Positions 1 to 32,580 of a DNA stretch of 32,894 nt are shown here, in pieces; positions within the stretch are counted from its first letter, which is position 1, and each line of letters starts with the position of its first letter. The notes beneath the pieces were generated by a model. The model was not told where the DNA came from, did no database searches, and worked only from the letters and a program-made list of their open reading frames with translations. Position numbers and translations under genes: made by a program. Source of the DNA: a virus (lineage: Duplodnaviria > Caudoviricetes); IMG/VR virus record IMGVR_UViG_3300031159_000040, positions 1-32,894 of that record; one strand, written 5' to 3'.

Positions 1-34
1 AACGGCTCAGAACGTAAACCCGGTAATCGGTCAT
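1..34 (-). CDS. 5' start of probable TadB-like (T2SS F family) pilus assembly protein, runs off window
   Basis: GGAGG RBS then ATG at 34 (MTDYRVYVLSR...) immediately after the cpaF stop; identity inferred only from usual tad gene order. Confidence 0.45.
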   Translation of the reverse strand, partial: MTDYRVYVLSR

Positions 35-37
35 CCG

Positions 38-388
38 TCAACCTCCTTCCACGAATCCGGCAAACCGCAGCTTGCGCACGTTCTGCAGCGAAGAAACCCG
101 CTCCAGCCGTCCTCCCGCGGCGCCGCTACCCTCCTTTCTTTCCTCGTGCCGAAACAGCGTGCGCAGCCGCACCTCCCCATCCTCCATTCCCGCCACCTCG
201 CAGATTTCCGCTACCCGGCGGGAACGGTCGCGAAAACGGCTTAAATGAATCATGATATCGATCGCGGACGCAATCTGGCGGCGAACGACCGGAACCGGAA
301 GATCCGCGCCGCCCAGCACCATCGTTTCCAACCGCGACAGCATGTCGCGCGCGCCGTTACTGTGGCCGGTGGACAAGCTTCCTTTATG
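38..388 (-). pseudogene. cpaF: 3' half of CpaF/TadA pilus assembly ATPase, split by prophage insertion
   Basis: HKGSLSTGHSNGARDMLSRLETMVL...QIASAIDIMIHLSRFRDRSRRV matches the CpaF His-box region and C-terminus; Walker A/B half absent, AT-rich phage DNA begins right upstream. Confidence 0.85.
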
Positions 389-410
389 CATGATATGCAT
401 ATCATTTTCA
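375..410. other. Prophage attachment junction (att half-site)
   Basis: cpaF similarity ends at ~388; GC-to-AT transition; 16-bp perfect palindrome ATGATATGCATATCAT at 390-405. Confidence 0.6.
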
Positions 411-447
411 AATAAAATTGAGGCCCTGGTTTTGTACCAGGGCCTCA
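410..447 (-). terminator. Intrinsic terminator after yolD-like gene
   Basis: GAGGCCCTGGT/ACCAGGGCCTC stem (420-446) followed by ATTTTATTT on minus. Confidence 0.75.
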
Positions 448-727: not shown

Positions 728-1121
728 AGTAGTCACTCCCCCGTATGATCGATCTGTAAACATCTCTGATGTATTGCGTCAGCCGCAACTGTATTTGGGC
801 TTTTATGACCTCTCGTGTAAATCCGATCCGCCCTTCGTATCCGCGGCAAATAAAATTGACATACAGTATAAAGTCGTTTTGCTCGTCGTCTATTATTTTG
901 ATTTTCCGCCGCCGCAGTTCCCGGCGCGAGTCCGCCAAGTCCCGATTGACGGCCACGATCAGCGCCTCCGTTACCTGGAGATATAGCGGCTTTAACACGT
1001 GTAGCGAGTATTGCATGTCGGAGTATTGCTTTTCGAGCATAATAACCATGTTGTTCAGCACCAACACGCTCCGAATGATCTCCAGCTCATCCGGCGTCGC
1101 TTTGCCTTTTAACTCGCTCAC
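666..1121 (-). CDS. Hypothetical protein of SOS operon
   Basis: GTG start overlapping the upstream TGA (GTGA); 3' end overlaps yolD by ~60 nt. Confidence 0.65.
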   Translation of the reverse strand: MSELKGKATPDELEIIRSVLVLNNMVIMLEKQYSDMQYSLHVLKPLYLQVTEALIVAVNRDLADSRRELRRRKIKIIDDEQNDFILYVNFICRGYEGRIGFTREVIKAQIQLRLTQYIRDVYRSIIRGSDYYDSSTKTDQDQRATANERRI

Positions 1122-1407: not shown

Positions 1408-1436
1408 TTGACAATATACTTGCGCTAGTATATAAT
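1408..1436 (+). promoter_or_regulatory. Consensus SigA promoter with palindromic operator (copy 1)
   Basis: TTGACA-17-TATAAT; ATATACTTGCGCTAGTATAT near-palindrome; identical to 2090-2118. Confidence 0.9.
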
Positions 1437-1462
1437 TAAATCAGAAAGGGGGGATACAAGCC

Positions 1463-1669
1463 ATGAGCAAAGAGGCATTTCGAGCTTTTGAAAAGCTCCA
1501 AAAACGGGAACACCTCTTGCAGACAATGCGTCATCGCCTGGAAACGGGACGCATCTCCGAAGAGGTGTTCAGGCAGTCGGTAGCCGATATTGAGAAGACG
1601 TACCGACTGACAGCCGCCGAAGAGGCTGCTTATGAACAGTATATCAAACGTATGGCTCGGAGCAAGTAA
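1463..1669 (+). CDS. Hypothetical 68-aa helical protein
   Basis: RBS AAAGGGGGG, own promoter and terminator. Confidence 0.8.
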   Translation: MSKEAFRAFEKLQKREHLLQTMRHRLETGRISEEVFRQSVADIEKTYRLTAAEEAAYEQYIKRMARSK

Positions 1670-1677
1670 GGCAAGGG

Positions 1678-1705
1678 AGAGGGGCGATTAGGCCCCTCTT
1701 TTTTT
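1678..1705 (+). terminator. Intrinsic terminator
   Basis: AGAGGGGC/GCCCCTCT stem plus T run. Confidence 0.85.
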
Positions 1706-1840
1706 GCGTCGGAACGGAATAAACTTAATCTCTATCCGTCCTGCTGCGTCCTCTTGGACAAAGTAGTCGAACAACTCTTGATCGATCAGGAGCATGGGAT
1801 AAACGACGTTGCCGACAACAACATAGTCAAGGTGTCTCAT
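1688..1840 (-). CDS. 50-aa hypothetical protein (not in ORF track)
   Basis: MRHLDYVVVGNVVYPMLLIDQELFDYFVQEDAAGRIEIKFIPFRRKKRGA; ATGA overlap with RHH stop; RBS GGGAGGGG. Confidence 0.6.
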   Translation of the reverse strand: MRHLDYVVVGNVVYPMLLIDQELFDYFVQEDAAGRIEIKFIPFRRKKRGA

Positions 1841-2022
1841 TGCCGCCCCTCCCTCTCCAATCTTTGCTCAATCGCCTTGACGATATATTCGTTAAGGCTC
1901 TCGCCTGCGGCCTCAGCCGCCGCTTCATAAACCGCCTTGCGCCCTTTTGGCACGATGGGATATAGGCGATCATAATTTGCGGCGTTATACTTTTGTTTTG
2001 CCCTTGTCGCTGACGTGCCCAT
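1837..2022 (-). CDS. Arc/MetJ-like ribbon-helix-helix DNA-binding protein
   Basis: 61 aa, KYNAANYDRLYPIVPKGRKAVYEAAA...GESLNEYIVKAI pattern. Confidence 0.8.
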   Translation of the reverse strand: MGTSATRAKQKYNAANYDRLYPIVPKGRKAVYEAAAEAAGESLNEYIVKAIEQRLEREGRQ

Positions 2023-2047
2023 GCAGACCACCATCCTTTGTGACTTA

Positions 2048-2118
2048 ACGATAACACAAAAAATATACTTACGCAAGTACAAAAAACCGTTGACAATATA
2101 CTTGCGCTAGTATATAAT
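2048..2118. promoter_or_regulatory. Divergent promoters with two operator copies
   Basis: Plus: TTGACA(2090)-17-TATAAT(2113); minus: TTGCGT-17-TATCGT with TG; operator ATATACTTACGCAAGTAC at 2063-2080. Confidence 0.8.
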
Positions 2119-2148
2119 AAAGACATCAAGAACAGGGGAGCGATTAAA

Positions 2149-2529
2149 ATGTATAACAAAATCCGCAATCTGCCGCTGGTTAACGAAGTGGATGAATCGA
2201 AAGTCCAAACGCTCGTTGAGTCGATGCTCGAAAATGGCTGGCAAGGCGCTCCGATCCTCTACGTAGCCGACACCGGACTTGTGACGGGTAGCCACCGTCT
2301 TGCAGCCCTGCAGCGCCTGGAGGAAATGCAGGCAGAAGCGGATGAGGAACTTTTCGATCGCATCTCCGAAATCCTTTCTTCTCCTGTCGCCCTTGATGTG
2401 AGCGACATCGTAAATGCCTTTTGCGCAGAGTACGACTACAGCTTTGACGAGCTTGACTTCTCGTCGCTCCGCCCCATTTTCGAGGGCACGGAGGTAGAAA
2501 AGTATGCTGACCAAATCGAAGAATGGTAA
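2149..2529 (+). CDS. Stand-alone ParB/sulfiredoxin N-terminal-like domain protein
   Basis: KVQTLVESMLENGWQGAPIL...LVTGSHRLAAL (GxHR motif); acidic tail. Confidence 0.7.
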   Translation: MYNKIRNLPLVNEVDESKVQTLVESMLENGWQGAPILYVADTGLVTGSHRLAALQRLEEMQAEADEELFDRISEILSSPVALDVSDIVNAFCAEYDYSFDELDFSSLRPIFEGTEVEKYADQIEEW

Positions 2530-2986
2530 CAAAAAACGCTGCGTCATCTGTGGGACAGAGTTCCCTGCGCCGCCCAGCTCCAAAAAAGTCACATGCTCCG
2601 ATCCATGTCGGCGCGAAAGAGCGCGGCGTTCTGCAACCGGCAGAAAGCGTTTCTGGAGCGCGGAAAAGAAGGCCAGATATGCCGAGAAAGGACAGAACGC
2701 TAACCTCAAACTCGGCACTGCTGCAGCTTTAAAAAGCCCCATTGCCGGGCCATTTGAAACAAATCAAAACGCTTTGATCTGGACGATTCACTCCCCAGAT
2801 GGAGTTACATATACCGTACGTAACCTCAGCTTATGGCTGCGGGAAAACGCGGACAAGCTGCCCGGTACGCCGGAGCAGGCGCGAGCCGGTTTCGCACAAA
2901 TCAAGCGGAGCCGGGAAGGAAAAACAAAGCGATCAGTAGGGAGCTGGAAAGGCTGGACATTGATTAAATGGGAGCAGCCTAAATAA
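2504..2986 (+). CDS. Zinc-finger plus NUMOD-like DNA-binding protein
   Basis: CxxC...CxxxC N-terminus, C-terminal SPDG...KGWTL NUMOD1-like motif; RBS GGAGG. Confidence 0.65.
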   Translation: MLTKSKNGNKKRCVICGTEFPAPPSSKKVTCSDPCRRERARRSATGRKRFWSAEKKARYAEKGQNANLKLGTAAALKSPIAGPFETNQNALIWTIHSPDGVTYTVRNLSLWLRENADKLPGTPEQARAGFAQIKRSREGKTKRSVGSWKGWTLIKWEQPK

Positions 2987-2990
2987 AAAG

Positions 2991-3021
2991 AGCAGTGAGG
3001 GGATGCCTCCTGCTTTTTTTT
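2991..3021 (+). terminator. Intrinsic terminator
   Basis: AGCAGTGAGG/CCTCCTGCT stem plus T run. Confidence 0.8.
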
Positions 3022-3041
3022 ATAAAAATCTCCGGAATCCC

Positions 3042-3071
3042 ATTTACGTATCATTATTTACATGTTATTAT
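3042..3071 (+). promoter_or_regulatory. SigA promoter, second family (copy 1)
   Basis: TTTACG-17-TATTAT with TG; 27/30 identical to 4370-4399. Confidence 0.75.
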
Positions 3072-3109
3072 ATAGACATAGGAAGAGATAATCAAAGGAG
3101 CGGATCGAG

Positions 3110-3472
3110 ATGAAAAACGTTATGACGCGGGCTTGGGAAATCGCTAAGGCGGCAGCCAGCATTCACGGCGGCAAGGCATCGGAATACATCGCCGACGCGC
3201 TGCGCATGGCATGGGCAGAGTCCCGTCGTCCAAAGAGCGTAACGATTGAGTTACGCCGGCCGAACCGCAAATCCAAAACGTGGGTCGCCGCAATCGTCGG
3301 CACGCATCCGGTTTACAAGTTCGAGCGCAAGTTCATCAATCCGATCGCCTGGGGCGAAACGACGTGGGAACTGGCCGAAGGTGTATACGAGGTTTGCGAA
3401 AACGGCAATCGTTACTTTATCCGGGTCGCTGGTGGCGACTATCGCCGGATCGACGCGAAGGACGTGGCGTAA
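3110..3472 (+). CDS. Phage hypothetical protein (RAWEIAK...ALRMAW N-terminal module)
   Basis: 120 aa, RBS AAAGGAG. Confidence 0.8.
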   Translation: MKNVMTRAWEIAKAAASIHGGKASEYIADALRMAWAESRRPKSVTIELRRPNRKSKTWVAAIVGTHPVYKFERKFINPIAWGETTWELAEGVYEVCENGNRYFIRVAGGDYRRIDAKDVA

Positions 3473-4158
3473 TGGCACGCAAACAAGTCCATCCCGATCA
3501 GAGGTTTGATCGCCTGGTCGTCATCCGTGAGACCGAAACGCGGAAGGGCAAGCGATACGCGCTTTGTCGCTGCGAGTGTGGCACGGTGCGAGAGTTTGAC
3601 ATATACGGCCTCCTCTCTGGACACACCCGATCCTGCGGGTGCCTGGCGCGAGAAAAGCTTGAACTTGGTAGACAGGCAGCTGACTTGACCGATCAGACCT
3701 TTGGCCGGCTGACCGCGAGGCATCAAGACGGCCTGCGAAATGGGATCGTTGTTTGGGTATGTGAGTGTAAGTGCGGCAATGTCGTAGCTGTGCCAGCCCG
3801 CGATCTTGTCAGCGGGAATACGACATCCTGCGGCTGCGCCGTGAAAGACTTTGCGAAGTCTCTTAAACAACACAACGAGCAGCATCACACCATCGATGGC
3901 GTTTTCGCCCCGCTGCTCCGGCAAAAAATCCAAACCAACAACAAGACCGGAGTCAAAGGGGTATCAATTCAGCGGGACAAAAAGGGGCGAGTGAAATACG
4001 TCGCAAACATTACCGTCAACGGCAAGCGTATTTATCTCGGTATATACCCCACGATTGAGCAGGCCGCCGAAGCGCGGAAACGAGCCGAGGAACAATGTTA
4101 CACTCCCTATCTGGAGCGGTATGAGGAGGAGAAAAAACGTGACAAGAGACGAAATTAA
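3472..4158 (+). CDS. AP2-domain protein with two CxCxCG...SCGC zinc repeats
   Basis: FxRLxV...CxCxCG...SCGC twice; NNKTGVKGV...YLGIYPTIEQAAEAR AP2 motif; TAATG coupling. Confidence 0.85.
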   Translation: MARKQVHPDQRFDRLVVIRETETRKGKRYALCRCECGTVREFDIYGLLSGHTRSCGCLAREKLELGRQAADLTDQTFGRLTARHQDGLRNGIVVWVCECKCGNVVAVPARDLVSGNTTSCGCAVKDFAKSLKQHNEQHHTIDGVFAPLLRQKIQTNNKTGVKGVSIQRDKKGRVKYVANITVNGKRIYLGIYPTIEQAAEARKRAEEQCYTPYLERYEEEKKRDKRRN

Positions 4159-4351
4159 AAAATGGATACAAGACAACCTGGTCATGCAAGACGAAGCTCG
4201 GCGGATAACCGGACAATCGGTGTCTGGATTTAACCAGTCCGTTCAGACGGGGCGGATCATCCCGTTTGTGGAATTCGGAGATGCGCGCAAAACGCGCCTT
4301 TATCTCCGATCCGATTTGGAGGAGTACGCGAAAATCAAGAGAATCCGTTAA
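4139..4351 (+). CDS. Small excisionase/MerR-like winged HTH DNA-binding protein
   Basis: 70 aa from GTG with GAGGAG RBS; EARRITGQSVSGFNQSVQTGRI...RLYLRSDL. Confidence 0.7.
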   Translation: MTRDEIKKWIQDNLVMQDEARRITGQSVSGFNQSVQTGRIIPFVEFGDARKTRLYLRSDLEEYAKIKRIR

Positions 4352-4369
4352 CTTTTTTTGTCACACCCT

Positions 4370-4399
4370 ATTTACATATAATTATTTATATGTTATTAT
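4370..4399 (+). promoter_or_regulatory. SigA promoter, second family (copy 2)
   Basis: TTTACA-17-TATTAT with TG; near-palindrome ACATATAATTATTTATATGT. Confidence 0.8.
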
Positions 4400-4451
4400 T
4401 AAATCACAGCAGGGGACGACATACAAAATTAAATCAAAGGAGAGGTTGAAA

Positions 4452-4616
4452 ATGGCAAAAATCTACTACAAGGACATCCTGGTCGGAGAGGTAGTCACAA
4501 ACCGCAGCTTGACGGTGGATGAAGCGTTGGAGGTAATCGGATTTGACGAGCAAGCGTTTAACGCAGAGCACGGATTCGACGACATCGACTACAACGATTT
4601 TAAGCTTGTGTACTGA
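4452..4616 (+). CDS. 54-aa acidic hypothetical protein
   Basis: RBS AAAGGAGAGG; 12 D/E vs 4 K/R. Confidence 0.75.
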   Translation: MAKIYYKDILVGEVVTNRSLTVDEALEVIGFDEQAFNAEHGFDDIDYNDFKLVY

Positions 4617-4644
4617 GAGCGGAGGGGCTCCGGCCCCTCTCTCC

Positions 4645-4707
4645 CCCGCCTGATGATGGCCGGATGGTAACCGGCCGAAACGTCCACCCGAGCGTCGCGG
4701 GATACCC
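4645..4707 (+). ncRNA. Type I hammerhead ribozyme (HHR1), predicted cleavage after C4696
   Basis: Stem I CCCGC/GCGGG; core CUGAUGA; one extra U; stem II GGCCGG/CCGGCC; GAAA; stem III ACG/CGU; GUC cleavage triplet. Confidence 0.85.
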
Positions 4708-4730
4708 GCCACGAGTTGAAAACCGCATAC

Positions 4731-4770
4731 CGCATAAGCCCTCACCTTCGGGGAGGCAGCGGGGAAGGAG
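4731..4770 (+). repeat. UUCG hairpin + RBS leader element, copy 1
   Basis: CGCATAAG(C/T)CCTCACCTTCGGGGAGGC(A/G)GCG also at 5343-5373. Confidence 0.8.
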
Positions 4771-4778
4771 AATGAACC

Positions 4779-5321
4779 ATGAAACTCTCTCAATTGCTTG
4801 CCACTAAAAAGGTTGTCGCTTCTGGCTTTGCCGCTATTGCGGGATTATCCGCGTACTCGCGAGGCACGGAAGAGGTTGTCCTGTCGTCGCTGGCTCCGTC
4901 CATCTTGGCGGAACAAGGAGTAACGGAATACTATGCGCTGGAACTTCCGCGTGGGACAGTCTACAACACGTCGGAGGAGATTATCGCAGCCGATCCGGAC
5001 GTGCGTCGCTACACGATTCAGCCGGTTGCCAACGTGAGTGACCTGGATGTGGTGATTGTCTCCCGCCACGCAGGCACAGTAGCGCTCCTGCAAGACCGCT
5101 ATCCGGGCGCTCAGGTACTCGACTCCGTTACGCCGAACCAAATCGCCGGCAAACACGTCGTCGGCACGCTGCCGCCTCATCTTATCACCGCTGCTGGCGC
5201 GTACACCGCCGTTACGATTCGCGGGTTTGACTACGCCAAGGACGGGGACTTGGCGGGTCAGGAGTTGGCGGCGCGGATTGTCATCGCTGACAAGCCGCTC
5301 CGGGTCGTGGAGATTAACTAA
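4779..5321 (+). CDS. Csx16-like putative cyclic-oligoadenylate ring nuclease (tandem domains)
   Basis: C-terminal VIVSRHAG...IAGKHVVGTLPPHL...GQEL matches Csx16 (VVA1548) motifs; N-terminal half looks like a degenerate copy. Confidence 0.7.
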   Translation: MKLSQLLATKKVVASGFAAIAGLSAYSRGTEEVVLSSLAPSILAEQGVTEYYALELPRGTVYNTSEEIIAADPDVRRYTIQPVANVSDLDVVIVSRHAGTVALLQDRYPGAQVLDSVTPNQIAGKHVVGTLPPHLITAAGAYTAVTIRGFDYAKDGDLAGQELAARIVIADKPLRVVEIN

Positions 5322-5342
5322 CCATAGCGATACATAGCGATG

Positions 5343-5382
5343 CGCATAAGTCCTCACCTTCGGGGAGGCGGCGCGAAAGGAG
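5343..5382 (+). repeat. UUCG hairpin + RBS leader element, copy 2
   Basis: Near-identical to 4731-4770. Confidence 0.8.
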
Positions 5383-5390
5383 AAATGAAA

Positions 5391-6107
5391 ATGTTTAACA
5401 TTGATTTCGTCTATGACTCGACCAATCTGCCGAGTCAAACAGGTAAAGAAGGCATTCGGGCGGCTCTCCACTATTTAGATGCCGCGGACGGGCAAATTAA
5501 ATCGATTAAGGGCAAGATTGGCTATGGTCGGTATACCGCCGGTTACAGTCGGGATGGAGGATTTACTTCCAGATCGTACGGATTTTCTATGGCGCAGGAG
5601 GGTATCCTGCTCAGGTATTTTGACAACAGCAACAACGGGAGCTGGACCTGGTTTATCCCAGACGATCTCTCCGAGATAGAGGGCGTTCTCGTTTTTGCTT
5701 TTACAGCACATGGCAGGTCCATCGACTCATATGTCCAAAGTATTGACTACGGCTTGGTGTTAAAAATCAATACTGCGAACTACGGAGATCGGCATCCTTT
5801 AAATTTGATTTACGATTCTGTTAAATTTGACCAATATCGACCCGAGTTTAATCTCTTTGGAGATTATTTGGCTGTCCTTTTGCTGTCGCTTTTGGCCGAG
5901 TATAAGGACGCATTAGCGTATCCCTTTACTACCGGAGCATTGGAGGGTAAGACTTTGGGGTCTGCGCTGTATGACATTGCATCTCGTAGGCACTCAGCTT
6001 TTTTGGATGCAATGTTGTCCGGGGACATTAAAGTCGATCCCGCCCAACTTTTGAGGGGATCGAAGTACCTCGGGCGGGACCTGTATCCGCAATATTATTC
6101 GGCATAA
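5391..6107 (+). CDS. 238-aa hypothetical protein
   Basis: RBS AAAGGAG 8 nt upstream; no family recognised. Confidence 0.75.
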   Translation: MFNIDFVYDSTNLPSQTGKEGIRAALHYLDAADGQIKSIKGKIGYGRYTAGYSRDGGFTSRSYGFSMAQEGILLRYFDNSNNGSWTWFIPDDLSEIEGVLVFAFTAHGRSIDSYVQSIDYGLVLKINTANYGDRHPLNLIYDSVKFDQYRPEFNLFGDYLAVLLLSLLAEYKDALAYPFTTGALEGKTLGSALYDIASRRHSAFLDAMLSGDIKVDPAQLLRGSKYLGRDLYPQYYSA

Positions 6108-6201
6108 ATGACAAGAGCCCCCTTACGGGGGCCATGTCGTGTAGGAACAAGGTTGTTTTAATCAACGCCTCGCTCGTGGCGGGCGACAAGGCCGAAGCCT
6201 T
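6108..6201 (-). ncRNA. Solitary type I-C-like CRISPR repeat RNA (Racr/crRNA-like candidate)
   Basis: 5' UUCG hairpin, repeat GTCGCCCGCCACGAGCGAGGCGTTGATTAAAAC (6187-6155), ~22-nt spacer-like segment, GCCCCC-GTAA-GGGGGC hairpin. Confidence 0.7.
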
Positions 6202-6236
6202 ATCTGTATAATATACAGATACCCAAAACTTGTCAA
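6201..6236 (-). promoter_or_regulatory. Near-consensus SigA promoter with operator for the repeat RNA
   Basis: TTGACA(6236-6231)-17-TATTAT(6213-6208); inverted repeat TATCTGTAT-AAT-ATACAGATA (6201-6221) over the -10. Confidence 0.8.
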
Positions 6237-6325
6237 CCCACCTGACGAGCGCGCAAGCGCCTTGGGACCGCTGGGTACGGTCCGAAACCGCCGCGTCGAG
6301 ATGACGCCGCGGTCGCGGGATACCA
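6237..6325 (+). ncRNA. Type I hammerhead ribozyme variant (HHR2), predicted cleavage after C6314
   Basis: Core CUGACGA; inserted GCGC-GCAA-GCGC hairpin; stem II GGACCG/CGGUCC; GAAA; stem III ACCGC/GCGGU; GUC; stem I CCCAC/GCGGG with one A-C mismatch. Confidence 0.75.
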
Positions 6326-6455
6326 GCCACGAGCTGGCCCGGCCGGGCTGGCCTTTATATAGATTGTTCTTTGAAAATAAAACAGGACTCGTCAAAATCC
6401 GATATATATTGTAACATGTGGAATAGAATTTATTCCTACAATTGGGGGAATTGGA

Positions 6456-6956
6456 ATGAAAAAATCTTTAATCGCTGGCGCAATTGTTGCCGCGCTCCTT
6501 GCCGGATGCTCGGCAGAGACTGATAGTCTTAAGCCTGCTAGTGTACCGGCATCGGTAAGCCCAGTTCCTGCAATCGAAGCGCCCGAGTCGACGACTGCGC
6601 AGGAAGTGGCTCAAGAAACGGCGAAGCCTACAAATACGGAGAAGAATGTGCCTAGAGAATATACGGCAGCATTAAAAAAAGCGGAAATGTACGCTGAGTC
6701 TATGAGTATGTCAAAGGCTGCTATTTATGATCAACTGACCTCTGAATATGGAGAAAATTTTCCGAAAGAAGCCGCTCAATATGCCATTGATAACATCACT
6801 TTTGATTGGAAAGAAAATGCATTAAAAAAAGCAAAATTGTATGCGGAATCTATGAATATGTCAGATTCTGCTATTTATGATCAACTGACCTCTGAATATG
6901 GAGAAAAATTCACCAAAGAGGAAGCACAATATGCGATAGATCATTTAGAAAAATAG
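6456..6956 (+). CDS. ltp: Ltp-family surface lipoprotein (superinfection exclusion)
   Basis: Lipobox LAGC; two 50-aa repeats A/NALKKA..YAESM.MS..AIYDQLTSEYGE.F.KE.AQYAID. Confidence 0.9.
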   Translation: MKKSLIAGAIVAALLAGCSAETDSLKPASVPASVSPVPAIEAPESTTAQEVAQETAKPTNTEKNVPREYTAALKKAEMYAESMSMSKAAIYDQLTSEYGENFPKEAAQYAIDNITFDWKENALKKAKLYAESMNMSDSAIYDQLTSEYGEKFTKEEAQYAIDHLEK

Positions 6957-11279: not shown

Positions 11280-12662
11280 ATGAATGAATTAATATTCGAT
11301 TACAGAAAGAAATCGTTTAGAGAACTATTTCTTATTTACTTTCTGGTTCTGATTCCTTTGATTGTTGTTGTACCTTCTTTTTACCGTCCTGAAATAAATA
11401 AAATTAGCCCTTCTTTTGTGTTTACAAACTTGATCATAGGCTTTACTTCGCTAATAATGATCATTTTAGAAGCAAGAAAAACGATGTATTCTCTTCACTT
11501 GATCCATTGGCTATTCCATTTTTCATTTTTCTTTATCGCTCCAATCATCCAGTATTTACATAATAAATTTATGTGGGGGAATTTAACTTCTGATGACTTG
11601 AATGTACTTATAAAAGCAAATATTTTAATCATTTTGTGGCAGTGGGTATGGATAATAATCGCAATAATAACAGAGAAAAAACATATATTTAAAGAAAATA
11701 CTGACGAGTTCGGCACCCAAATAGGAATTAGTTCACTTCGCTTTTTTATTTTGTTTGTTCTATGCGTAATTGACTTATTCTACTTTGTTCAAATCATCGG
11801 ATTTGGAGGTCTATTTGCCAGAGGTTCTGAAAAATTATTCTCTGACAACAGTTCGCTTAATCAAATTATTTATAATGTCGGAAAATCACTTCCTATTGTT
11901 TTATTAGTTGCGTCATATTACCAAAAACAAGTAAAACAGAATAAAAAAACTTGGTCATTTATGATATTAATTTCAGCAGTACTTGTTTTACTTTTAAATT
12001 TTCCAACTGCCGTCTCTCGCTTTTGGATGGCTACCGTGTATATTGGTATCATCTTGACATTTTTTAAGTTTAAGTCCAAGAACCTGTTTACTTATCTGCT
12101 TATATGCGGATTGCTCATTTTGTTTCCGATATTAGGATCTACACGTCATGCCTCCAATCTTAACGATTGGATCAACATTATGTTAACCAATGGATACACT
12201 AACAATATTTTAACAGGTGATTACGACGCATTCTCTATGATAAATCATACCATTCGTTATATTGATATATATGGCGTTACTTATGGCCATCAATTACTGG
12301 GTGCTCTGCTGTTTTTCATTCCCAGAACGTTTTGGGAAAGCAAGCCCATCGGAAGTGGGCCGACTGTTTCCGAGGGACTTGGATTAAGCTTTGACAACAT
12401 ATCAAACCCTTTAATATCCGAAGGACTAATCAATTTCGGACTACCTGGTTTATTTATATTTGCATTTTTGTTTTCCTTCGCAACCAAAAAACTAGATTTG
12501 CACTTCTGGTCAAATGGAAATTCGATTTTTAAGATTTTATACCCCTTCTACATTGGTCTATTCTTCTTTATGATGAGAGGAGATTTGTTATCTACTTTTA
12601 GTCTGACGGTCAGCTTTAGCTTTGCGTTTTTTATTTTCCTCCGACCGTCGAAAAAGAGATAA
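11280..12662 (+). CDS. Wzy-like polysaccharide (O-antigen) polymerase, moron
   Basis: 460 aa, ~11-12 TM; SR motif, FFIPRTFWESKP, EGLINFGLPG, MRGD motifs typical of Wzy/O-antigen polymerases; low GC; opposite strand. Confidence 0.8.
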   Translation: MNELIFDYRKKSFRELFLIYFLVLIPLIVVVPSFYRPEINKISPSFVFTNLIIGFTSLIMIILEARKTMYSLHLIHWLFHFSFFFIAPIIQYLHNKFMWGNLTSDDLNVLIKANILIILWQWVWIIIAIITEKKHIFKENTDEFGTQIGISSLRFFILFVLCVIDLFYFVQIIGFGGLFARGSEKLFSDNSSLNQIIYNVGKSLPIVLLVASYYQKQVKQNKKTWSFMILISAVLVLLLNFPTAVSRFWMATVYIGIILTFFKFKSKNLFTYLLICGLLILFPILGSTRHASNLNDWINIMLTNGYTNNILTGDYDAFSMINHTIRYIDIYGVTYGHQLLGALLFFIPRTFWESKPIGSGPTVSEGLGLSFDNISNPLISEGLINFGLPGLFIFAFLFSFATKKLDLHFWSNGNSIFKILYPFYIGLFFFMMRGDLLSTFSLTVSFSFAFFIFLRPSKKR

Positions 12663-32198: not shown

Positions 32199-32580
32199 GT
32201 AAGACGTCGCACGCAGTCATCAAATGGGGCCCTCCCTGCACCCCGCGGCGACGGTCGGCTCACCATTTGAAAGACGCGGGAGCCTACGCGCCGAACGCAT
32301 CTTTAGCCGGGCGTCCTACGGCATCGCAATATGCTGCGCGCCGGTCCGGTCGGCGCACATAGAGGATTTGCACCCTCTTTACCACGTCGGATCGTTCCAG
32401 TCCGGCGCAGAAAAGAAGGGACAAAGCCCTTCATGGGGTCTCGAACCCCGCCCCATCTCCACACGCTCGGCGACTCGCGCCTAAGGCCCAGCCGATTTCG
32501 GCTCACCCACCGCATGGCCGGGTGCCGCAAACGATAAGGGGTACAGCGGCAATCACCCGAGCATTAAGCTCTATGTGATT
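32152..32580 (-). ncRNA. Long structured late-leader RNA candidate
   Basis: GC-rich non-coding stretch with many hairpins, two T-loop-like hairpins and two terminators. Confidence 0.45.

Follow-up and report, generated by a model that had tools for sequence, protein, structure and literature searches.

The window analyzed here is the whole 32,894-nt record IMGVR_UViG_3300031159_000040 (Duplodnaviria; Caudoviricetes), which holds one virus whose head, tail and lysis genes occupy the minus strand between ~30,300 and 7,023. Between its YolD-type genes and its lysin gene lies an island (1408 to 6956) encoding a double form of Csx16 in a single chain, a solitary CRISPR repeat RNA, two hammerheads, two small regulators and several other small proteins. 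Bases 1-380 of the window displayed 98% identity to genome G141, which comes from a family sample of 401 genomes centred on a Paenibacillus genome, and the two sequences diverge from near base 380. The phage interrupts an ATPase gene (window 1-412; L166) that is uninterrupted in G141. Since the gene is intact there and the sequences part near base 380, this point was identified as the attachment junction and G141 as a representative of the host species. The island is a variable accessory region between the lysin gene and the attachment site of a temperate phage. An initial annotation had it transcribed against the late genes, which is correct for the forward promoters and the genes behind them; a ribbon-helix-helix (RHH) gene, the open reading frame (ORF) ORF50 and the repeat RNA are on the minus strand. 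The features needed for the analysis were as follows.

4779..5321, plus strand: double Csx16 in one chain, 180 aa; N-half (residues 1-83) remodelled, C-half (89-180) recognisable
6110..6236, minus strand: small RNA gene with promoter 6236-6208 (11/12), I-C-type repeat 6187-6155, a segment of ~22 nt and terminator hairpin 6133-6116
1408..1436, plus strand: P1, a sigma-A-type consensus promoter (perfect TTGACA-17-TATAAT) with operator palindrome 1416-1430 between -35 and -10
1837..2022, minus strand: RHH-like gene, 61 aa
2090..2118, plus strand: P2 consensus promoter (perfect TTGACA-17-TATAAT) with operator 2098-2112, the same as that of P1
3043..3071, plus strand: P3 promoter (9/12) with the second operator type at 3046-3065
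4139..4351, plus strand: HTH_17-like regulator, 70 aa, last gene of the P3 operon
4371..4399, plus strand: P4 promoter (10/12) with the second operator type at 4374-4393
4645..4706, plus strand: type I hammerhead 1; core 4650, predicted cut after 4696, pseudoknot between loop II and tail
6237..6324, plus strand: type I hammerhead 2; core 6242, predicted cut after 6314, extra core hairpin; leads the ltp message
4731..4772 and 5343..5384, plus strand: hairpin before the ribosome-binding site, two copies, conserved in L004 and L024

The Csx16-like gene noted initially was recovered and is a tandem duplication, with two domains in one chain. The Csx16 profile PF09652 scored 24.1 bits, just under its cut-off of 25, over residues 93-147 only, and relatives L008, L010 and L018 scored 25.0-30.6. 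Compared with 19 single Csx16 proteins, the C-half gave a probability of 99.9 and an E-value of 2e-31 and kept the SRH and GTLP motifs, and the N-half gave E 0.0033 over 48 columns, in register. The two halves matched each other at E 0.0039, with a score of 19.9 where the highest of 30 column shuffles was 16.9. In an AlphaFold2 model (pLDDT 94.6, pTM 0.86) the strand-helix order was repeated in both halves.

The alignment used for residue conservation contained the query and 60 of 69 close homologues, with longer and near-duplicate sequences left out. Phe17 occupied the putative catalytic His position of the N-half in 61/61 aligned sequences, and both the RG-loop Arg of the N-half (R58) and the His of the C-half (H97) were kept in 60/61. 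H97 and R166 were nearly or fully invariant across the alignment. By its conservation and by analogy with the role of His in AcrIII-1 and Crn4, His97 would be catalytic, and Arg58 may complete the active site. The ratio of non-synonymous to synonymous polymorphism (pN/pS) over eight pairs ranged from 0.18 to 0.26 in the N-half and from 0.03 to 0.34 in the C-half. This purifying selection, similar in both halves, ruled out a decaying N-half.

There were 69 close homologues, and 63 clusters at E 1e-30 or better; the carriers were prophages, phage Shbh1, a Clostridium phage and a megaplasmid. Double Csx16 was present in 5 of the 401 family genomes, and among 401 phylum genomes PF09652 matched the tandem copy only. 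A shared-word search for short homologues found none; a profile search later found some. In our reading, 13 of 14 other two-domain Csx16 proteins keep an intact Arg-His pair in one half only. Separate tandem Csx16 proteins (L265:5998-6783 and P0145-P0212) had both halves recognisable, with one Arg-His pair usually lost, and many double Csx16 proteins (L005, L008, L018, L272) bore C-terminal extensions of 80-190 aa.

Against the Protein Data Bank (PDB), Foldseek returned nothing at E 0.001 for double Csx16, and a sequence search with the family profile returned nothing relevant. The AcrIII-1 profile PF08960 (DUF1874) did not match the island at E 0.1 and found L301 at E 2e-27. No type III cas operon was seen beside double Csx16 relatives among the neighbours examined. 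The family motifs of Csx16 (PF09652; PMC12409355) are shared with the C-half of the window protein. The published form is described as a cA4-specific (cyclic tetra-adenylate), ~95-aa single-domain protein, modelled as a homodimer and located in type III loci (PMC12409355), whereas the window form is one chain whose halves are unequal, and it occurs on mobile elements outside cas loci. Phage copies of Csx16 were reported in 2 of 28,114 genomes (PMC12409355). AcrIII-1/Crn2 (DUF1874, PF08960) and Crn4 are likewise small viral ring nucleases, and both adjoin relatives of double Csx16. AcrIII-1 is cA4-specific, and the fold likeness of double Csx16 to it is weak. According to the account in PMC12830947, Crn4 has another fold, a symmetric dimer and broad specificity, with Crn4a cutting cA4 ~12x faster than cyclic tri-adenylate (cA3).

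Host signalling systems were surveyed through the repeat-associated mysterious protein (RAMP) genes, which were detected in 51 of the 401 family genomes; every RAMP locus of those genomes was fetched, plus L197. The 57 loci comprised 54 type III, two type IV-like and one lone RAMP. NucC accompanied 51 of the 54 type III loci, a CARF-HEPN effector two, and neither of them one. Within the NucC cluster, 16 of 53 members were profiled and all were NucC, the rest being assigned by BLAST clustering, and the search for other effectors covered ~100 of the 205 flanking ORFs. The TIGR02577 profile lacked sensitivity for these Cas10 proteins. NucC is present in each of the two type III systems detected in carrier genomes, and G003, from outside the family sample, carries double Csx16 and a III-A system paired with NucC. 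Viewed by subtype, the III-A, III-B and III-D loci of the family (L206-L261, L197) nearly all had a long NucC (~250-380 aa).

NucC has been described as cA3-activated and present in 35 loci, 84% of effectors using cA4 (PMC11229360). Single Csx16 is reported to cut cA4 only, even at 10 uM (PMC12409355), and cA3 to be difficult for two-fold dimers (PMC12830947). Since the type III loci of the family carry NucC, a cA4-only enzyme would have little to do in these hosts; the unequal pocket halves would suit a ring without two-fold symmetry. As to the ring nuclease against type III proposed initially, the NucC count leaves few targets here for a plain cA4 enzyme. From its sequence, double Csx16 probably acts on a cyclic oligoadenylate. 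That cA3 is its main substrate is our leading reading, to which we give a little less than even weight.

The solitary CRISPR repeat RNA noted initially was recovered, with its repeat on the minus strand behind its own promoter. Promoter and terminator patterns flank the repeat, and RNA contigs were uninformative on strand or ends. The 33-nt repeat was identical in 23/33 columns to the I-C array repeat of G141 and shared its hairpin and 11-nt tail; Cas5d would be predicted to cut it between 6166 and 6165. The score of the solitary-repeat profile was reached by chance in 15 of 1500 shuffles. The repeat was identical in L004 and different at two bases in L024, the upstream DNA changing at the repeat edge. 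Solitary I-C repeats also occurred beside double Csx16 in L004, L008 (two) and L272 (one), those of L008 and L272 being different. The exact repeat was present in one viral contig, and a metagenome scan for the repeat with its following bases found none.

Typing of the host CRISPR systems, as suggested in the initial annotation, gave two I-C loci and no type III match in G141. I-C-type spacers match the phage: DNA contigs of run X12 contained I-C-type repeats joined to spacers whose matches lie at window 1056-1088 and at the end of the Csx16 gene. Out of 1286 spacers, among them the 12 of the host species, none was a good match to the window itself. The self-targeting spacers suggested there as a second check were found in the related lysogen G363, whose I-C operon retains each of its seven ORFs. 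One of its spacers matched its own prophage at 33/35 with a TTC protospacer adjacent motif (PAM) and an intact seed, and another at 31/35. The G363 island shares ORF68, ORF50, the RHH gene and double Csx16 with the window, and no solitary repeat was seen in it. Since G363 has other prophage-like regions, an inhibitor could lie elsewhere.

Racr decoy RNAs have been described, RacrIC1 being co-transcribed with acrIC5 (PMC10651486). As in that description, the window has a solitary I-C-type repeat in a prophage, matched to the host subtype and near candidate inhibitors. Compared with RacrIC1, the window repeat lies on the opposite strand between a promoter and a terminator of its own, and its 11-nt tail is altered at two positions.

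Our scan detected 15 promoter-type sites, compared with 5.2 +/- 2.2 in shuffles. The very strong promoters of the initial annotation were confirmed for the perfect P1 and P2; P3 and P4 are weaker. Its two small repressors with repeated operators were both recovered as the RHH and helix-turn-helix (HTH) genes, with palindromes present three and two times. The first operator, an imperfect palindrome, is found at 1416-1430, 2065-2079 and 2098-2112, and the second at 3046-3065 and 4374-4393. In all four forward promoters, a palindrome of one of the two kinds lies between the -35 and -10 boxes. The RHH gene is located between P1 and P2 (Pfam matches below cut-off; PHROG 13890 E 2e-16), and one relative is annotated as 'Arc-like repressor'. 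In prophage L196 the RHH protein was 50% identical, and a different, perfect palindrome stood at the corresponding promoter places. That protein and operator both differ at the same places fits a regulator-operator pair. The HTH gene (HTH_17 E 0.005, below cut-off) ends the P3 operon immediately upstream of P4. The locus of its Listeria-phage relative was not recognisable as an anti-CRISPR (acr) locus. To judge from these positions, the RHH protein likely represses P1, P2 and its own gene, and the HTH protein likely represses P3 and P4.

Small HTH or RHH genes together with inverted repeats in promoters are typical of anti-CRISPR-associated (Aca) regulators. Aca14 is reported to be an RHH protein repressing neighbouring operons, one of them with viral csx20 (PMC13551039). 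The window layout resembles the one described there for Aca14 and HTH-type Aca: a small RHH protein, inverted repeats in several operon promoters and a viral ring nuclease nearby (csx20 for Aca14). In the window, however, the operator in front of the ring nuclease gene is of the HTH type and not of the RHH type.

Both hammerheads of the initial annotation were found by a type I descriptor, though not by Rfam, which detected neither them nor any other RNA in the island. No shuffle among 200 gave two hammerheads and two gave one. Each has the CUGANGA and GAAA core, three stems and a NUH site, stem I of hammerhead 2 containing one mismatch. A pattern scan covering 12 of the 64 parts of the viral collection returned 131 loci, and ~680 viral stretches are estimated overall. 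Among 126 distinct hammerheads, 90 preceded a gene with a ribosome-binding site, at a median of 38 nt downstream and with a median length of 80 aa. Loop II paired at least four bases with the 3' tail in 67 of 109 members, whereas 500 tail swaps averaged 29 and never exceeded 41. The motif following each hammerhead was also tried as a CRISPR repeat and ruled out, being stem I plus the pseudoknot strand. The extra hairpin between core and stem II (window 6249-6263) was present in 2 of 131 sequences, the other being L148, and the stem sequences differ.

Hammerheads flanking small genes, with a pseudoknot, have been described in many prophages, with ardA as a neighbour (PMC3088659). The window agrees with that description in having several hammerheads flanking single genes and the pseudoknot. 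It differs in the extra core hairpin of hammerhead 2, an insertion not met in the portion of that report compared here. Elsewhere, phage regions of ~3.4 kb (L098/L099, L085, L106) held up to six hammerheads, most then followed by a small gene. In L024:1766-2443 a different gene of 225 aa stands behind a hammerhead and is itself matched by host I-C-type spacers. In one pooled dataset, RNA contigs start 24-32 nt behind a hammerhead cut, and one RNA contig stops at the base of the repeat hairpin, beyond which DNA contigs continue; both observations fell below our bar for a weak hint and were not used. The repeated hairpin before the ribosome-binding sites might serve for processing or as an RNA operator.

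The remaining genes of the island were as follows.

1463..1669, plus strand: ORF68, candidate inhibitor; the first gene behind P1, encoding a rare helical protein
1688..1840, minus strand: ORF50, 50 aa, a conserved small gene downstream of the RHH gene
2149..2529, plus strand: acidic protein, 126 aa, net charge -19, with a weak ParB-N-like start (PHROG E 3e-4 and 4e-3)
2504..2986, plus strand: basic protein, 160 aa, with a zinc-finger-like start, resembling HNH-associated DNA-binding genes
3110..3472, plus strand: Gp111-family protein (PF07410 E 2e-28)
3472..4158, plus strand: AP2/HNH-family-like DNA-binding protein, swapped among relatives
4452..4616, plus strand: ORF54, a small acidic protein, 75-96% identical in L004, L024 and L081; candidate inhibitor
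5391..6107, plus strand: ORF238, 89% identical in L004 (pN/pS 0.18), with other genes in its slot in relatives
6456..6956, plus strand: Ltp-family lipoprotein (PF07553 E 7e-50, two stretches; PHROG 4980 E 9e-55)

ORF68 had four homologues (87% identical in L196, pN/pS 0.17), no family match and no relative in the viral scan. ORF50 was 82% identical in L196 (pN/pS 0.18), without a family match. The library scans and the Atlas gave no family for ORF54 or ORF238, and no PDB relative was found for the acidic 126-aa protein. The comparable island ORFs had pN/pS values of 0.13-0.48, that of ORF54 being based on five changes only, and are therefore real genes. The Ltp protein, as first annotated, was confirmed by its PF07553 match; it has a lipobox-like N-terminus, and its family annotation is superinfection exclusion.

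Other parts of the window also showed features of their own. The interrupted gene resembles what we take to be a CpaF/TadA pilus ATPase, and since it is intact in G141, lysogeny may switch the pilus off. Among the tail genes an AT-rich multi-pass membrane gene without a Pfam match lies on the opposite strand (11280-12662), and an epsC RNA motif (Rfam RF01735) is located at 32435-32558.

The neighbours of island relatives included several counter-defence genes. A Gp111 relative was encoded directly upstream of AcrIIA6 in phage SW11, the only such record opened. ArdA was two genes downstream of double Csx16 in L002, as was Crn4/Unk_01 in phage Shbh1, and an AcrIII-1-family gene was 1 kb from a frameshifted double Csx16 copy in L301. 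Pieces of Cas8c and Cas5d were found within 4 kb of double Csx16 in L020. In this gut-type phage (L020:483-1190, 5813-6370), the N-terminal Cas8c piece and the short Cas5d are candidate cas-derived I-C inhibitors. These associations are individual cases. The initial annotation would have been undermined if homologues never occurred beside known acr genes; the records of AcrIIA6, the AcrIII-1-family gene, Crn4/Unk_01 and ArdA show that they do. Its reading as an anti-CRISPR island is partly supported by these anti-defence neighbours, by I-C in the host species with I-C-type spacers against this phage and by the self-targeting lysogen, but not by the host-species genome as regards type III. Of the unknown ORFs that it proposed as inhibitor candidates, none matched an Acr family in the libraries scanned. 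The same libraries missed a true AcrIIA6, and this test is therefore weak.

Several observations speak against a cA3-directed double Csx16. The homology of the N-half has little statistical strength, and the two halves could not be aligned globally; the best AcrIII-1-family fold match was AFV3-109 (Z 4.3, rmsd 3.8, 90 residues). Activation of the ~250-380-aa family NucC by cA3 is assumed from the NucC family. Twelve listed Cas10 ORFs lack a [GA]GDD string, and in G363 NucC is split and Cas10 lacks this string. Type III systems, as RAMP genes, were detected in only two of seven genomes carrying double Csx16, and within the family in 1/6 carriers compared with 51/401 in the background, that is, without enrichment; the absence of a type III match from G141 points the same way. 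The protein might instead be an ordinary cA4 ring nuclease, whose chains pair via their C-halves or whose one-chain form cuts cA4 once. The tested single Csx16 is reported as cA4-specific (PMC12409355), the C-half retains the family motifs, two family loci have CARF-HEPN effectors, and relatives also occur in hosts outside the family surveyed for effectors. The fused tandem CARF effector Csm6-2 is described as answering to cA6, not cA3 (PMC11229360), so fusion alone does not imply cA3; by the title of PMC13187428, it responds to cA5, another odd ring. Yet a CARF-HEPN effector was found in only 2/54 family type III loci, the N-half is under selection with fixed substitutions at the His position, and Crn4 is found near one copy and an AcrIII-1-family gene near another, either of which already deals with cA4. 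The frameshift of the latter copy would also be consistent with its being redundant beside a cA4 enzyme. That double Csx16 is an ordinary cA4 ring nuclease seems unlikely to us. It would be more surprising if the protein were a non-cutting cyclic-nucleotide sponge, or acted on a signal of the cyclic-oligonucleotide-based antiphage signalling system (CBASS) type rather than a CRISPR signal. Each half has lost one half of the catalytic motif and most carrier genomes are without a type III system, but H97 and R166 are nearly or fully invariant, and the NucC profile matched nothing in five carrier genomes, in a search that had no positive control.

Similar doubts concern the repeat RNA and the island as a whole. 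The lowest-energy fold of the window small RNA is without the repeat hairpin, which an upstream hairpin and a rival pairing exclude and which forms in L004 and L024. The ~22 nt could act as a guide that directs host Cascade to a promoter for silencing, in the manner described for Cracr RNAs. The short segment between repeat and hairpin fits short guides as described in bioRxiv 10.1101/2024.10.29.618823, and its first five bases are identical in the window, L004 and L024. Against this, no PAM-flanked target with an intact seed was found in 11 host cas-locus stretches scanned, and the genome-wide pattern gave only two matches in three genomes, each with two mismatches (controls 0), the host genome being a draft of another strain. 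Since no good PAM-flanked target was found, a decoy is likelier than a guide. We judge inhibition of type I-C by the repeat RNA to stand at about even chances from its sequence, and a guide function to be rather unlikely. The island might also be general cargo (superinfection exclusion, host takeover, mobile endonuclease genes), mostly unrelated to CRISPR. Neither hammerheads nor Ltp are unusual in prophages, Ltp and the AP2/HNH-like genes count as ordinary cargo, and hammerheads flank small genes in many prophages (PMC3088659), with 0/82 genes behind them matching an Acr family; nor did any island ORF match one. Stem I of hammerhead 1 had a probability of 0 in full context and of 0.88 only if the RNA stops at 4704. 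Since hairpin 4697-4709 is predicted to displace stem I in the finished transcript, as folded by a program that ignores the pseudoknot, cutting would need co-transcriptional timing or help from the pseudoknot. Most neighbours of double Csx16 relatives are unannotated, and the 32 neighbour loci had a solitary repeat in three, a hammerhead in four and a Crn4 motif in one. On the other side, two CRISPR-derived parts lie within 1.5 kb, their pairing recurs in L004, L008 and L272, and the Acr libraries also missed AcrIIA6. General cargo is an improbable description, and there is good reason to regard the island as a counter-defence island by its gene content.

The counter-defence island could work as follows. 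On phage entry the operators would be empty and P1-P4 would fire. The RHH and HTH proteins would then bind the promoter palindromes and shut the promoters, and the hammerheads would cut the transcripts into gene-sized messages. The two halves of double Csx16 would fold into the dimer-shaped pocket of the family, with a working site formed by the C-half residue His97, possibly together with Arg58 from the N-half, and a remodelled site with Phe17 instead of His and the KDGDL loop instead of the RG loop. The solitary repeat RNA would serve as a decoy for type I-C Cascade. We lean towards a self-repressing counter-defence kit, in which double Csx16 would destroy a cyclic oligoadenylate, most likely cA3, and the repeat RNA would decoy I-C Cascade.

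The new point is the lopsided double Csx16 with its likely change of substrate, the parts of the island being otherwise of known kinds; no description of tandem Csx16 was found in the publications searched. We tentatively propose, as an idea more doubtful than the kit itself, that Bacillota phages made the cA4-specific homodimer Csx16 a dedicated cA3 ring nuclease by duplication and broken pocket symmetry. It would act against NucC in type III systems, possibly also in CBASS, and would be deployed with an I-C decoy RNA in hammerhead-punctuated islands. The island also offers ORF68, ORF50, ORF54 and the repeat RNA as I-C inhibitor candidates, supported by the self-targeting lysogen. Two gaps named in the published accounts would be addressed, namely ring nucleases for non-cA4 signals (PMC12409355) and the handling of cA3 by a two-fold dimer (PMC12830947). 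If true, double Csx16 would turn off NucC-based systems by removing cA3 and would clearly exemplify how duplication can change specificity.

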